Source of the DNA: a virus
Taxonomy: Duplodnaviria; Caudoviricetes
Virus record (IMG/VR): IMGVR_UViG_3300020477_000013
Coordinates: 137,586-201,585 of that record
Strand: one strand, 5' to 3'
DNA length: 64,000 nt
Positions within the stretch are counted from its first letter, which is position 1. Each line of letters opens with the position of its first letter. Shown piece by piece: positions 2,482 through 47,355 of the stretch. The position numbers were made by a program, and so were the translations under genes. Below the pieces are notes generated by a model. It had not been told where the DNA came from, did no database searches, and saw only the letters and a list, made by a program, of their open reading frames with translations.

Positions 2482-3306
2482 ATGGCACGAAAGTCAAGAG
2501 AATTGAGACTTTCACAATCTAGAGACCTAATGCTTGCTTACGAAGAAGCATGTATGGACTCTGATTATCGATATCGGTTTATCGGTGACATGGTAAGGAG
2601 GCTTGAACGCCCTAAGGCCCTAAGTCAAAAGCAACGAAAGTGGCTGGATTCTCTTATCGACGAGGGGGCCCCCGCGCCTAAAGGCGACCCAGTTCTCATA
2701 CAGAAGATTAAAGATGCTGCTGAGCTTGACGGGATGCAGCATCGCCGTCAGGTTCTATGTGATTTTGCCGGAACGATTTGTAGAGGATATACCCTCAGCG
2801 AAAAGCAGTTTAAATTTTTGGATATCATGTTATCTGAGGCGGAAGAGATTAGGCAGAATGGAAGGTATCGCCCTGCGGATCCTGGCCGGTTAGCCACCGC
2901 AAGTTCGCTGTTGTCAGGTAAGTCAGAGTGGTATTGGGCTCACCGCCGTGGTACAGCGAAAGCCTATCATAAAGTTCAATCATGGCTTAAGTGGAACACC
3001 ATGCGAGAGGTGATTGAAGAAGTTAAGCTGCTTGGCAAAGAAACAAACCACGTTTTAGGTGAAGAGCCGGTTATCGATGAGTGGTCGTGCGAAAAGGTTT
3101 TGAAGGCAGCAAAAACCGGTTTGTCTGAGATTGACTCTCCTCGTCATGAGGTCGGTGCACTACGTTATGTGGTCCTCGCCGGAAAAAGCATTCCCGGCAT
3201 GGTAATGACTGAACCAAAAGTTATGGGTAATGATGTTAAGCAACAAATCCTGGTGGGGGGTGAAATGATTACATGCTCCACTACAGATATTCGTAAAAGA
3301 AAATAA
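2482..3306 (+). CDS. Hypothetical protein (putative early)
   Basis: 274 aa ORF downstream of promoter, strong RBS. Confidence 0.75.
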   Translation: MARKSRELRLSQSRDLMLAYEEACMDSDYRYRFIGDMVRRLERPKALSQKQRKWLDSLIDEGAPAPKGDPVLIQKIKDAAELDGMQHRRQVLCDFAGTICRGYTLSEKQFKFLDIMLSEAEEIRQNGRYRPADPGRLATASSLLSGKSEWYWAHRRGTAKAYHKVQSWLKWNTMREVIEEVKLLGKETNHVLGEEPVIDEWSCEKVLKAAKTGLSEIDSPRHEVGALRYVVLAGKSIPGMVMTEPKVMGNDVKQQILVGGEMITCSTTDIRKRK

Positions 3307-3404
3307 ATGCAGTAAAAAAGGTTTATACACTTAGCACAGTATAGATAGAATATTCACAACCTGGGGTCACTTGGCCCCTTTGTTATATTAAAAAAGGTAT
3401 TAAA

Positions 3405-3767
3405 ATGTTGAGAATAATTTTGGTAATAGCGATGATTGCTGTCTCTCTTCTGTTGATGGGTTGCAGTGATGATGTTGTCAATGAGGTATCAGATACCCAG
3501 GGGGTTTCTGTATCGGAGGACGCTTTGGGCTCGGATGCATCTGGGTTAGATGCTGAGGGTTCTCCAGCAGATGCTGGTGAAGCTTCCACCGACGTTGACG
3601 AGCAAGATAGTGCTGCCTCAGAGGGTGGTGATTCTGTACCAGCAGAGCCCATTGGCGATGATGCCGAGGAACTACCCTCAGATCCAACTGAGAATCCTGG
3701 TGATCAGTCAGCACATTATTCATTTCCCGCTTGGGAAATTCCACCTTCAAATGACGATAACAGATAG
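3405..3767 (+). CDS. Putative lipoprotein with acidic low-complexity body
   Basis: Hydrophobic N-terminus ending LLMGC (lipobox), Asp/Glu/Ser-rich remainder. Confidence 0.6.
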   Translation: MLRIILVIAMIAVSLLLMGCSDDVVNEVSDTQGVSVSEDALGSDASGLDAEGSPADAGEASTDVDEQDSAASEGGDSVPAEPIGDDAEELPSDPTENPGDQSAHYSFPAWEIPPSNDDNR

Positions 3768-3777
3768 GAGGTTTATC

Positions 3778-4113
3778 ATGAAGGAATTTTTAAAGAAGAA
3801 TGGTATTTGGGTCGTTGCAGTTACGGTAATTGTTGCAGTTTTGCTTTGGGTATCTGGTATCGTGGGTAGTTTTGTGCCTGGTGTAGCTACTAACACTAAC
3901 ACAGCCACTGATACTACTATCACTGCGCCTGCGTCGACATCTACTTCTGGTGAGAATACAGGTACAACCACAGGTACAACCACAGGTACAACCACAGGTA
4001 CAACCACAGGTACGACGAATACGGGTACAACAACTACACCTGAGAATTCTGTGCCTACGATTGAGGGTACCTCCACGAATGCTGATAAGACGAATATTAA
4101 TACAGACAATTAA
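3778..4113 (+). CDS. Membrane-anchored Thr-rich protein
   Basis: RBS AGGAGG before ATG 3778; N-terminal TM helix; TTTG repeats. Confidence 0.7.
   Translation: MKEFLKKNGIWVVAVTVIVAVLLWVSGIVGSFVPGVATNTNTATDTTITAPASTSTSGENTGTTTGTTTGTTTGTTTGTTNTGTTTTPENSVPTIEGTSTNADKTNINTDN
3958..4017 (+). repeat. 12-bp tandem repeat ACAGGTACAACC x4 plus one degenerate copy
   Basis: Read directly; encodes TGTT repeats. Confidence 0.9.
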
Positions 4114-36900: not shown

Positions 36901-36929
36901 GTGTAAAATGCGCCAGTATTGGGTAGAAT
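36901..36929 (+). promoter_or_regulatory. Promoter variant GTGTAA-N17-TAGAAT
   Basis: ATG 36937 lies 7 nt downstream, possibly a leaderless mRNA. Confidence 0.6.
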
Positions 36930-36936
36930 AGTACAC

Positions 36937-37392
36937 ATGGATAATAAAAAGCCAGAGACTGTCATCGTTGCCTTGAGCGGAGGGTTTGACCCCCCCACCC
37001 CGGGGCACGTCTCGATGATTCGAGATGCCAAGAATATTGGTGACGTCATTATTATCCTGAATAGCGATGGATGGTGCGACAAGGCACGGTGGTCGGGCAA
37101 GAGGTTCCTACCTTTTGAGACCAGGAAGAGGTGCTTGGAGCTAATCCCCGGGGTTGTGGGGGTCATTGAGGCAAAGGATGCCGATGGTACTGTATGCGAA
37201 TCCTTACGTGAGCTCAAGCCGGACTTTTTTGGAAACGGCGGGAACCGTACGGTAAAGAATACTCCGGAGGTTGAGATGTGTAAGGATCTCGGAATTGGGA
37301 TGTTGTGGTTCCTGGGTGATAATGTCAAGCAGGAGGATCATGACGTCCTTAAGGAGGCCGTGATGGAGGCCAACAGGGTGAGAGGCCTATAG
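36937..37392 (+). CDS. Cytidylyltransferase-like protein (RfaE/TagD family)
   Basis: SGGFDPPTPGH, ILNSD, F-x-N-G-G-x-R, E-x-x-x-C. Confidence 0.8.
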   Translation: MDNKKPETVIVALSGGFDPPTPGHVSMIRDAKNIGDVIIILNSDGWCDKARWSGKRFLPFETRKRCLELIPGVVGVIEAKDADGTVCESLRELKPDFFGNGGNRTVKNTPEVEMCKDLGIGMLWFLGDNVKQEDHDVLKEAVMEANRVRGL

Positions 37393-37533
37393 TATGGGAG
37401 CAAATATGTTTTTTTTGTAATGGAGCTATGACGTTTTGTATTGGGGATTTTTAGTATCCCCGCATGTAAATTAATTTAGGTGAAAATGCATATGCAGAGT
37501 AACCGCTGTTCTTTTTAAAATAAAGCAATATTT

Positions 37534-37609
37534 GCCCTCGTAACTCAGCAGGCAGAGTAGCGGGCTTTTAACCCGAAAGTCGTAGGTTCGAAACCTACCG
37601 GGGGCACCA
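37534..37609 (+). tRNA. tRNA-Lys(TTT)
   Basis: Cloverleaf, CTTTTAA loop, CCA. Confidence 0.93.
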
Positions 37610-37655
37610 AACACTTCTGTTCCAGGTATCAAAATGATATATCATGCCATGATAT

Positions 37656-37818
37656 GTCACGCCGAGGATGGAAGCCTTAAGGAACGACAATCCTAACTGT
37701 TGAGCTGCTACTCCAGTTAGACAAATCGTTCGCCGTTGCAGCGGAAACCGGAGCCTTGGCACAGCCACCCGGGCAAGCGGTGACGGGGGCATGCGCCGGT
37801 TAGCCCGGCGTGTCCCCC
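37656..37818 (+). ncRNA. Unclassified multi-helix structured RNA
   Basis: Nested complementary segments of 5-14 bp; GC-rich island without a credible ORF. Confidence 0.55.
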
Positions 37819-37872
37819 TAGCTTGTTTGTTTAGAGACTAAGACATAAATTTTTAAAATTAGGAGTTTAACC

Positions 37873-38127
37873 ATGTCCGTAGGAAGACAATTACATAGGG
37901 CAGCTGTTGCCCACTTTGAATCCCAGAGGGAAGAAGCTATCGCTGTGCTTCAGCTTTACTTCACTTCGCCTAGTGCAGTTGGAGATCATCCAGGCCTCGT
38001 CGGCGATATCGTTGAATGGACCTCAAAGATAGCTGAAGCAGAGGATGCCCTCAGGGTCTTGAGTACCATGTTCAGGTTTGAGGAAAATTCACAGGCACCC
38101 ATGGGTAAATCCGAACCAGGCTCCTGA
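37873..38127 (+). CDS. Conserved-looking phage hypothetical protein
   Basis: 84 aa, RBS AGGAG, AVGDHPG motif. Confidence 0.7.
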   Translation: MSVGRQLHRAAVAHFESQREEAIAVLQLYFTSPSAVGDHPGLVGDIVEWTSKIAEAEDALRVLSTMFRFEENSQAPMGKSEPGS

Positions 38128-44617: not shown

Positions 44618-46118
44618 TATTTTAGACGCTGGCGCCGAAGAGTTTATAACTGAGCTTGCGGGTGTTTTTCATACGAGTCTTAAGGTTTTGCTAGGTGCCC
44701 GCAGGGATAGACAACTACAATATGACAGCGGGCACCTACCTGATTTTCTGCAAGAGACAGAAGGTATTAGAAATTCAACATGGGAAGTTTCACCCGTACC
44801 TGAAGATATTCATGATAGAAGGGTAGAGATCACAGGCCCACCTGATAGAAAAATGGTGATTAATGCACTCAATTCTGGTGCGAATGTCTTCATGGCTGAT
44901 TTTGAGGATAGCATGTCGCCCACATGGGAGAATGTGCTAAGTGGTCAGCAAAATTTATATGACGCAGTTCGAGGCACTATAACTTATGAGCACCCCACAA
45001 AGGGGACATACAGATTGTGCTCCAATCCCGCAGTTTTATTTGTCAGGCCTAGGGGGTTACACCTACCGGAGTCTCATTTTAAAGTAGGGGGAGAGGATGT
45101 ACCAGCGTGCTTGTTCGACTTTGGTATTTTTATGTATAATAATGCCAGGTACCTTGTTGATAGTGGGCGCGCTCCGTATTTTTACCTGCCAAAGCTAGAG
45201 CATTATTTGGAGGCAAGGTGGTGGAACAGCGTATTCACCTGGACCCAGGAGAAATTAGGCATTGAGCCCGGTACGATCAAGGCAACAGTTTTGCTAGAGA
45301 CCCTTCCTGCTGCATTTCAAATGAATGAAATTCTTTATGAGCTTAAGGAGCACTCAGCAGGCTTGAATTGTGGTAGGTGGGACTACATCTTTAGCTATAT
45401 TAAGACGCTGGGGGGTGATCCTTCATATGTGCTACCTGATAGGTCACAGGTTACGATGGAATCCTCTTTTATGACTGCGTATTCAAATTTGGTCGTTCAC
45501 ACATGTCATAAAAGAGGAATTCATGCCATGGGAGGAATGGCGGCTCAGATCCCCATTAGGGATGATGCTGCAGCAAATGCCTCAGCAATGGAAAAAGTTT
45601 ACCAGGATAAGCGCAGAGAAGTCGCCGCCGGACATGACGGCACATGGGTAGCTCATCCTGGCCTTATATCCATAGCAAAAGATGTATTTAATGAATTCAT
45701 GCCTGGTAAAAACCAAATATCTTTAAAGACAGAGTGCTCATGTTCACAGAGCGATTTGCTGCAACCGTCGCAGGGAACTATCACCCGACAGGGCCTACAG
45801 CAAAATGTTGATGTAGGTATTCGATATATTTCTGCATGGCTTAACGGGAATGGGTGCGTGCCTCTTTATAATTTAATGGAAGATGCAGCTACTGCAGAGA
45901 TATCTCGCACGCAGATTTGGCAATGGATAAAGCATGGTGCAACCCTGGACGACGGCACACCGGTTAGCCACGGTTTGCTGGAGGCAATTACAGGAAAAAT
46001 TGTATGGGATAATCCATCATTGAAAGATGGCGCAAATTTATTTTTAGACATGTGTTTAAATGAAACCGTGGTAGAGTTTTTAACCATACCTGCATATAAA
46101 AGGATTATGAATGGGTAA
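44607..46118 (+). CDS. aceB: Malate synthase A
   Basis: [59 protein letters not shown]. Confidence 0.96.
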
Positions 46119-47355
46119 TAATGATGATCGTTGGCATGGTATATCCAGGCCGTATTCTACAGAAGATGTTGTACGTTTGAGGGGATCACTTCCGGAACGT
46201 TATGTCCTTGCCGAAAGGACGTCAAAGAAACTATGGAGGCTGCTCAACGAAAAGGACTATACACATGCTATGGGTGCCGTTACAGGCAATCAAGCTATGC
46301 AGATGGTGAAGGGTGGCTTGCCGGCAATATACTGTTCGGGGTGGCAAGTTGCAGCTGATGCTAACGATTCACATGAAATGTATCCCGATCAAAGTCTTTA
46401 TGCGGTCCACAGCGTTCCCATGCTAGTCCAAAAAATAAACAATGCTTTGAGGAGAGCAGACCAGGTTGAGTGGTCCGAGAATAGCTCATCTACGTCAAGG
46501 GACTGGTTTGTACCGATCGTAGCAGATGCCGAAGCTGGGTTTGGGGGATCACTTAACGCGTTTGAATTAATGAAATCTATGATCAGGGCAGGTGCGGCGG
46601 GTGTACACTTTGAAGATCAGTTAAGCTCTGCGAAAAAGTGCGGTCATCTCGGTGGTAAGGTCTTAGTGCCAGGCAGCGAATTTATCAAAAAACTAGTTGC
46701 GGCCCGCCTGGCTGCTGACGTGATGGGAACGGACACCATATTGATAGCAAGGACTGATGCCAATAGCGCAAAACTATTAACGTCAGACATAGATCCGGAA
46801 GATAAGCCATTCATTACTTCAAGTGACAGGACGCCAGAGGGATTTTATCGAATCACCGGTGGTCTAGATCTAGCTATTTCTAGAGGGCTAAGATATGCAC
46901 CCTACGCAGACCTAATTTGGTGTGAGACTGGAAAGCCTGACTTAGAAGAAGCAAAGAGATTCGCAGATGCTATTCATGAGAAGTATCCTGGAAAACTGCT
47001 GGCGTACAATTGTTCACCGAGCTTTAACTGGAAGAAAAATCTGGATGATGAAACAATAGCAAAGTTCCAACGTGAGCTAGGGAAGATGGGTTACAAGTTT
47101 CAATTCATTACCCTGGCTGGTTTTCATAATCTCAATTACCACATGTTTCAGTTAGCTCGAAATTATGAAGAAAAAGATATGACGGCATACTCTGAATTAC
47201 AGGAGAGTGAATTTGAGGCAGAGGTTAATGGGTATACGGCAACTAAGCATCAGAGAGAAGTTGGGACCGGATACTTTGACGCGGTTGCTCAGGTGATATC
47301 AAGCGATTCATCTACGCTAGCATTAAAAGAGTCAACAGAGGCGGAGCAGTTTTAG
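46111..47355 (+). CDS. aceA: Isocitrate lyase
   Basis: [46 protein letters not shown]. Confidence 0.97.

Follow-up and report, generated by a model that had tools for sequence, protein, structure and literature searches.

Structured RNAs other than tRNAs have been described beside the tRNA genes of phages. The species 1 and 2 RNAs of phage T4 (rnaC and rnaD), of ~120-140 nt, lie directly after tRNA-Arg in the T4-type tRNA cluster and are matured from tRNA precursor transcripts; we know of no function assigned to them over several decades. GOLLD and ROOL, RNAs of 500-800 nt, are phage or prophage encoded and often found near tRNAs, and the theta ribozymes are RNAs of ~60 nt. Theta ribozymes are minimal HDV-like ribozymes with nested double pseudoknots, which occur immediately 3' of phage tRNA genes with the cleavage site within 5 nt of the tRNA end, and have been proposed to mature tRNA 3' ends (PMC10879173). 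The manA and wcaG motifs (RF01745 and RF01761) of marine T4-like cyanophages are complex, conserved RNAs whose occurrence is almost confined to marine metagenomes and T4-like phages, the manA RNAs being located in the 5' UTRs of metabolic genes (PMC2864571).

Here we analyse a stretch of 64,000 nucleotides (the window; positions 137,586 to 201,585) of the 201.6-kb IMG/VR viral contig IMGVR_UViG_3300020477_000013, from the Caudoviricetes. A sequence-only reading had proposed an unclassified structured phage RNA beside tRNA-Lys, a description borne out by the lack of any Rfam 15 match and by strong covariation. The comparative evidence indicates that the flagged stretch is a genuine, widespread structured RNA family of phage tRNA islands that is uncatalogued in Rfam 15.

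The likeness to the T4 species 1 and 2 RNAs is one of position only, the window RNA starting 4 nt after tRNA-Lys. There is no similarity in sequence or structure; rnaC has a tRNA-type T arm but the new family does not, and the latter is far more widespread, with a defined four-way-junction core. Homology to rnaC/rnaD was rejected, as model R1 matched nothing in the tRNA region of T4 (L023) with E<=1 and the folds differ. Like the theta ribozymes, the RNA is small, structured and adjoins a phage tRNA 3' end, but it has a ~115-nt core and variable tRNA spacing and order. With manA and wcaG it shares an occurrence in marine or T4-like phages without a known ligand or function, and a manA-like RNA follows two copies of the motif in one relative (L100); the consensus and fold differ, however, and the new family sits in tRNA islands whereas manA sits in 5' UTRs. 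GOLLD and ROOL (cf. PMC12286853) are likewise phage-borne, tRNA-proximal, elaborately conserved and of unexplained function, but they are in Rfam, gave no match here and are 5-7 times larger. The tRNA fold itself also has a closing helix and three arms; the size of the new RNA (~110 nt) and its arrays with tRNAs would allow shared processing or mimicry. Unlike tRNA, it lacks a T- or D-loop consensus and an anticodon-type loop of 7 nt, and no CCA was seen after P1 in the units read (L079, L113); its first arm consists of a long helix interrupted by a conserved A-rich internal loop.

Genomic context and architecture of the RNA

All genes around the RNA are on the plus strand, in the order DnaJ-domain protein, FkbM-type methyltransferase, cytidylyltransferase-like protein, tRNA-Lys(UUU), RNA, 84-aa ORF and tRNA-Asn (Table 1). 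The RNA extends over ~220 nt (37614-37832) and its 3' end is a long hairpin followed by a U run. The region folds at -86.2 kcal/mol (z = -3.8), and none of 200 dinucleotide shuffles of the plus strand was as stable. The core of ~115 nt (37665-37779) comprises P3, the A-rich internal loop below P4, P5 and P6, and is flanked by 5' and 3' domains.

Table 1. Features of the window RNA and its surroundings, and settings of copies in other loci.
Feature	Record	Position	Strand	Description
Cytidylyltransferase-like protein	window	36919-37392	+	
Second conserved element	window	37478-37525		upstream of tRNA-Lys
Second conserved element	L009	5572-5637		
Second conserved element	L014	2109-2190		
Second conserved element	L015	3052-3140		
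Second conserved element	L018	3081-3160		
Second conserved element	L077	2088-2140		
Second conserved element	L020	2575-2634		
Second conserved element	L036	3524-3548		
tRNA-Lys(UUU)	window	37534..37609	+	ARAGORN; Rfam tRNA 64.4 bits; directly 5' of the RNA
5' domain	window	37614..37674	+	P1' (37614-37622 / 37666-37674) closes variable hairpin 37635-37659; predicted folds
Junction CCUUAAG before P3	window	37675..37681	+	alignments A9 and A12
P3	window	37682-37687 / 37726-37731	+	
A-rich internal loop	window	37688-37692 / 37721-37725	+	CAAUC / ACAAA
P4	window	37693-37699 / 37714-37720	+	
Apical P4a	window	37702-37713	+	GAG/CUC, loop CUGCUA
P5 hairpin	window	37733..37744	+	CCGU, loop UGCA, GCGG
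Linker AAA and P6	window	37745..37772	+	P6 = 37748-37751 / 37769-37772, around variable hairpin 37757-37767
3' domain	window	37773..37832	+	P8 GCAAGC 37773-37778 / GCUUGU 37821-37826
84-aa ORF	window	37873..38127	+	PHROG 1811, no known function; downstream of the RNA in the marine clade
RNA copies	L079			two copies 24 nt before tRNA-Lys
RNA copy	L084			before tRNA-Thr, Gly, Lys
RNA copy	L094			34 nt after tRNA-Lys(CUU)
RNA copy	L099			48 nt after tRNA-Val, inside a 14-tRNA array
RNA copies	L100			two copies upstream of tRNA-Leu and tmRNA
RNA copy	L101			between tRNA-Thr and tmRNA gene

The first helix of the window RNA begins 4 nt past the CCA end of tRNA-Lys, and this distance is 4-12 nt in the window clade (five relatives). 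The order tRNA-Lys then RNA is repeated in L009, L014, L015 and L077. Among the relatives covering the region, these same four keep the equivalent of helix P1' just past the tRNA end with its sequence changed, relatives having the strands CUUCUGUCAC/GUGAUGGAAG, CUUCCGUCG/CGAUGGGAG and CUGUUGCUU/AAGCGACAG. Co-transcription with tRNA-Lys, as the sequence-only reading proposed, is plausible, since the 4-12 nt of spacing leaves no room for a separate promoter.

In the 3' domain, P8 surrounds an asymmetric loop that is conserved and a G+C-rich hairpin, P9 (37785-37818), and is followed by the U run (37826-37832). This arrangement was derived from a consensus fold together with per-sequence folds of the window, L005, L009, L015, L018 and L077, and among the relatives covering the region the domain is kept with changed sequence in all five of these loci; P8 reads GCGGGU/GCUCGU in L077 and GCCGGC/GCCGGU in L018. 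The domain is probably an intrinsic terminator or a 3'-end module, judging from these modelled folds and the 3-7 U that follow it across the window clade. The domain was not called in a strict terminator scan, as its U run comes after P8 and not P9. The run is just 3-4 U in L077 and L009, and termination may therefore be leaky there.

Upstream of the tRNA-Lys/RNA unit, 8/8 marine-clade loci share a second conserved element (Table 1). It consists of AGGTGA(A), a variable 10-44-nt insert, often in the form of a hairpin, and (C)AGTAACC, and at most loci a GTTCTTTAAGAT-like sequence follows it, ~20 nt 5' of the tRNA. In L036 the element is only ~8 nt before the model match to the RNA (~25 nt before P3). 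From its sequence, the element could be either another small RNA motif or a phage promoter that has an upstream site and uses TAAGAT or TAAAAT as its -10 box.

Compensatory substitutions in the core helices

Pairing in the core was assessed in two alignments. In a MAFFT alignment of six sequences made blind to structure (A9), 97.2% of the pair cells in P3, P4/P4a, P5 and P6 are paired and nine pairs are changed on both sides; when the 3' partners were slid by 1-3 columns as a control, pairing dropped to 31-46% and double changes were almost gone. In a model-fitted alignment of 20 sequences (A12), which leans towards the model, 93.9% of cells are paired, with compensatory changes in 19 of 24 pairs and 30-50% pairing in the slid controls. 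P3 is fully paired in A9, with compensatory changes in three of its six pairs (four of six in A12), and P4 has five compensatory pairs in A9 and ten out of ten in A12. P5 is invariant inside the marine clade, and three of its four pairs are compensatory across the 20 sequences. P6 occurs as CCGG/CCGG, CCGA/UCGG and UCGG/CCGG and is 90% paired in the 20 sequences. The alignments show that the core helices P3, P4, P5 and P6 are each maintained by compensatory substitutions. P4 of L005 and L009 contains two G-U pairs, which would be C-A on the minus strand; the RNA is therefore placed on the plus strand, as are the tRNAs.

The near-invariant nucleotides are unpaired or at junctions. They are the AGG formed by the 3' AG of the junction CCUUAAG and the first G of P3, CAAA and ACAAA in the P3-P4 internal loop, a G between P3 and P5, and GAAA(C/U)CG joining P5 to P6. 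The collection scans used exact patterns taken from the conserved core, so the invariance of ACAAA, ACAAAU and GAAAYCG, like the sample of genomic contexts, was partly shaped by the search.

The complementary segments listed in the sequence-only reading are all present, and its inner helices, GAACGA 37682/TCGTTC 37726 (P3) and CTAACTG 37693/CAGTTAG 37714 (P4), are kept in relatives with compensatory changes. So is the 3' hairpin at 37785-37818, for which the compensatory changes were seen in a pairwise consensus fold. Of two small hairpins it had placed further 3' of P4, the first, now mapped to 37733-37744, is P5, kept with compensatory changes. Its outer helices, GTCAC 37656/GTGAC 37780 and GCCGAGG 37661/CCTTGGC 37754, and its pseudoknot AGGAT/ATCCT were found in the window sequence only. 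The nested multi-helix topology that it drew from these is correct for the inner helices and wrong further out; in place of the outer pairings the comparative data support the 5' helix 37614-37622/37666-37674, P6, and the helix 37773-37778/37821-37826 around the 3' hairpin. When forced, the nested fold has an energy of -77.8 kcal/mol, compared with -86.3 kcal/mol for the comparative fold and -86.5 kcal/mol for the unconstrained optimum, a cost of ~9 kcal/mol for the outer helices and pseudoknot relative to the comparative fold. GCCGAGG/CCUUGGC was also considered as a conserved pseudoknot and rejected, as pairing between the 5' region and the P6 loop in relatives was no better than in shuffles. 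GUCAC/GUGAC has no counterpart in L005, L009, L015, L018 or L077 and was rejected as a conserved helix; it might be a vestige of the family closing helix P1. The overlapping palindromes noted upstream (37634-37659) make up the apical hairpin of the variable 5' domain. Since they are part of this domain, the RNA starts at ~37614, earlier than the 37634 first given.

Comparison with known RNA families and coding tests

The search against Rfam that the sequence-only reading had suggested matched no known family. With Rfam 15 and relaxed filters, no family was matched on the window RNA at its gathering score or at E<=10, and the homologous loci gave no match at E<=10 in six marine-clade loci or at E<=5 in eight distant ones. 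Neither ARAGORN nor RF00005 called any copy of the RNA as a tRNA, and all flanking tRNAs were called. Candidate identities as tRNA-Sec, permuted tmRNA, SRP, 6S or RNase P RNA, and resemblances to CsrB-like RNAs, K-turns and the glutamine riboswitch, had no model match or failed on inspection. The manA RNA (RF01745) does not match the motif; the match in L100 (8014-8238; 50 bits and E = 7.5e-10, just below the gathering score of 55.2) is a separate neighbouring element. Exact core strings occur in no paper of the literature searched. A 2023 survey of viral structured RNAs (10,006 csRNAs), by its description, required several unique IMG/VR sequences per motif and contains motifs of 29-151 nt; judged by that description, it may overlap the wider family. 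Among the contigs of one metatranscriptome and three DNA runs, coverage was confined to the tRNAs, apart from a DNA contig of 153 nt that is identical to the window; these contigs are uninformative on expression.

The alternative that the locus is no RNA, but codes for a small protein or functions at the DNA level (for example as an origin, a site of recombination or an array bound by protein), is highly improbable. ORFs of 62-65 aa on the minus strand and 34-77 aa on the plus strand do run over the region, and some have been annotated by gene callers, including public calls of 45-77 aa across the RNA in L009 (5831-5968), L014 (2326-2463) and L015 (3277-3507). The frames of the minus-strand 65-aa ORF and of the plus-strand ORFs are, however, inconsistent among relatives, and these ORFs were rejected as genes. 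A 1-nt indel puts conserved blocks into different frames in different members of the family, and the window and L005 share identical blocks of 22 and 25 nt although the protein next to the RNA has just 53% identity between them, contrary to a codon-wise pattern; no synonymous-site pattern is seen. The frame shifts and the identical blocks show that the region is not coding, and the public calls are almost certainly false ORFs in G+C-rich non-coding sequence. The strand-specific G-U pairs, the compensatory changes that keep the helices and an orientation that always follows the neighbouring tRNAs also speak for an RNA.

Distribution of the family

Collection of relatives yielded at least 22 copies in at least 12 phage lineages, including jumbo phages of 267, 332 and 442 kb. 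The sequence-only reading had called for homologues and a test of covariation, and the relatives collected supplied the 20 sequences of A12. The 84-aa protein belongs to a 53-60% identical cluster in ENA assemblies, on contigs L005 and L009 (= L010 = L011), all of which carry a homologous RNA at the same place with respect to the downstream ORF. L009-L011 keep the window order of cytidylyltransferase, tRNA-Lys, RNA and ORF, and L005 is cut off upstream of the RNA. Outside the marine clade the ORF is not tied to the RNA: L008 has a homologue of the ORF and no RNA. In L018 two tRNAs lie between the RNA and the homologue of the 84-aa ORF. Relatives of the cytidylyltransferase-like protein led to L014, L015, L018 and L077. 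When the whole records of 47 other phages encoding the cytidylyltransferase-like gene were searched, the RNA was present in just one, L036, a 267-kb IMG/VR phage with a minimal copy. The region 5050-6294 of L036 encodes proteins starting MKITKKQLKRII and MRLTKRQLRKII.

Several searches gave no further homologues: the two flanking proteins as single queries had no match in IMG/VR viral contigs, a megablast-style phage search matched only tRNAs, and a scan of metagenome contigs with the 3' anchor CCGGGCAAGCG, a variable stretch, returned two chance coding matches (L006, L007). Strict patterns found no match in viral or genome contigs, but a looser core pattern did. The distant copies were retrieved with this loosened pattern and a covariance model built from marine-clade sequences, and lie in the unrelated large phages L094, L096, L097 (332 kb), L098 (two copies), L099, L100 (two copies) and L101 (442 kb). 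L084, a 576-nt scrap of a Planctomycetota MAG, also has a copy.

L079 and L113 belong to a 211-kb contig (G055 contig C2) of a 'Candidatus Woesearchaeota' MAG, with six copies of the RNA. The contig encodes a large-terminase homologue (46069-46755) and has dense tRNA clusters among small ORFs, and the RNA was not found in 60 searched relatives of the MAG. Given the terminase homologue and this absence, the contig is probably viral, and by its sequence content probably a jumbo phage or virus contig that was binned into an archaeal MAG. In L113, ~860 nt after the triple array (3150-4010) are AT-rich and contain no ORF of >=70 aa, with a long (A)nG purine repeat near 3700-3780.

L017 and L018 are near-identical JGI contigs of one lineage, and L017 has a clean 99-nt deletion (L017 3168-3253 against L018 3236-3392) by which P3, P4 and half of P5 are lost and P6 and the terminator kept. 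The deletion represents either natural loss of the RNA or variation in assembly, and the RNA is therefore dispensable at least in that variant or assembly.

Setting in tRNA islands and the closing helix P1

Most copies lie in tRNA or tmRNA islands, including copies retrieved by sequence pattern alone, and the orientation of the RNA is always that of the neighbouring tRNAs (Table 1). In the flanks examined of L096, L097 and L098 there is no tRNA within kilobases. Outside the marine clade, the flanks of many units (eight lineages) pair into a closing helix, P1, giving a four-way junction of ~105-115 nt. The evidence for P1 came from duplex tests with shuffled controls, from the L113 units as read directly, or from plain MFE folds (L079, L096, L097, L098, L101 and L113); it was not seen for L094, L099 and the second L100 copy. 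A U run often follows the P1-closed units. In the marine T4-like clade of the window, P1 is replaced by the 5' hairpin domain and the 3' hairpin with its U run. Tandem head-to-tail arrays of two or three units occur in L079, L100 and L113, and at least four of the five array units of L079 and L113 have their own P1.

The copies lie 0 nt (L094), 10 nt (L036), 34 nt (L101) and 42 nt (L098) from a start codon. The genes downstream of the copies are unrelated, encoding an SNase, a dual-specificity phosphatase (DSPc), an HNH protein, unknowns and tRNAs, the last in L018, L079 and L084. No partner protein was found to co-occur with the RNA. An antitoxin role, as suggested in the sequence-only reading, is unsupported, as no toxin-like gene is linked and the scanned downstream genes differ between lineages.

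Other structured RNAs were seen near some copies. In L100 the manA-like RNA lies directly after the two motif copies and before a 92-aa ORF, which is followed by tRNA-Leu, a tmRNA gene and tRNA-Met, making the region a dense island of structured RNAs; L101 also has a tmRNA gene. Sub-threshold matches to group I introns occur near the motif in L097 (10430-10648, 49.1 bits) and L101 (4556-4766, 33.9 bits; gathering score 50).

Discussion

We favour, at about an even chance, the view that window 37614-37832 is the gene for a stand-alone stable structured RNA that would be matured with its neighbouring tRNAs. The tRNA-island context, the arrays with their own P1 and the unrelated downstream genes together favour a discrete RNA gene whose product would be matured in the same way as the adjacent tRNAs. 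Grouping into arrays of two or three, as in L079, L113 and L100, is seen for RNA genes, and many units have their own closing helix, often with a U run after it. Under this model, the RNA would be transcribed together with tRNA-Lys from a promoter upstream of the tRNA, its 5' end would be freed by the nucleases that trim the tRNA 3' end, and its 3' end would be set at the terminator-like P8/P9 hairpin. It would then act in trans via its folded junction, the most plausible mode being that of a scaffold or decoy that binds a protein involved in tRNA or translation metabolism.

Against a stand-alone RNA stands the closeness of start codons to the copies in L094, L036, L101 and L098, which fits a 5'-UTR element. 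A cis-acting leader, either a riboswitch-like aptamer or a transcription or translation control element, is possible but doubtful. In such a leader, binding of a ligand or factor to the junction would determine read-through of the terminator in the window clade, or access to the start codon in L036 and L094. Aptamers typically combine a closed multi-stem junction, here closed by P1, with near-invariant nucleotides at the junction and peripheral hairpins that vary, and the window clade has the order core, hairpin and U run, ~40 nt, Shine-Dalgarno sequence and ORF; the motif ends 0-42 nt before an ORF in the four loci named above, and the two copies in L100 are just 5' of a manA-like RNA, a published riboswitch candidate (PMC2864571). 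The downstream genes, however, are a mixture with no common function, rather than the functionally related genes that a riboswitch would precede, and in three loci they are tRNAs. No conserved helix competing with the core was seen in a two-sequence helix survey and folds, nor any conserved alternative pairing between core and terminator, P6 and P8 being adjacent and mutually compatible. Three-unit arrays are unusual for riboswitches, and the window element is downstream of a tRNA and not at a transcript start.

By analogy with the HDV-like theta ribozymes, the RNA could be a self-cleaving or otherwise catalytic RNA that processes polycistronic tRNA-island transcripts, a reading that we consider improbable. 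Close and recurrent adjacency to tRNAs (4-12 nt from the tRNA-Lys 3' end in the window clade), the precedent of tRNA-associated ribozymes in phages (PMC10879173) and the conserved unpaired nucleotides in the internal loop and junctions are consistent with it. The distance and order relative to tRNAs vary, however, from 4 to 48 nt on either side to no tRNA within kilobases (L096, L097, L098), and the covariation describes serial hairpins or a four-way junction and not a nested double pseudoknot; the spacing and the fold both argue against an HDV-like theta ribozyme. No Rfam ribozyme family was matched, and release 15 is expected to include HDV-like, hammerhead, twister, pistol and hatchet models.

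More speculatively, we suggest that the family may constitute a new functional class of phage RNA, as a tRNA-protecting decoy, a ligand sensor or a self-processing tRNA-island RNA, although this is rather unlikely. In the decoy form proposed here, a tRNA-sized four-way junction would shield phage translation from host enzymes that target or cleave tRNAs. Copies of the RNA are repeatedly found beside tRNA-Lys, and tRNA-Lys is a favoured target of anticodon nucleases.

Large phages give kilobases to their tRNA islands, and ever since the discovery of the T4 species 1 and 2 RNAs the non-tRNA RNAs in them have lacked an explanation. The new family is a tractable object in this respect: its core is small, sharply defined and backed by covariation, and the covariance model already retrieves copies from phages ranging from marine T4-like ones to one of 442 kb. 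The family is a candidate for a new Rfam entry, and its recognition also removes false small-ORF calls in three relatives. A decoy or scaffold for tRNA metabolism would have a bearing on how phages contend with host defences directed at tRNAs, and an aptamer or ribozyme would represent a new class.
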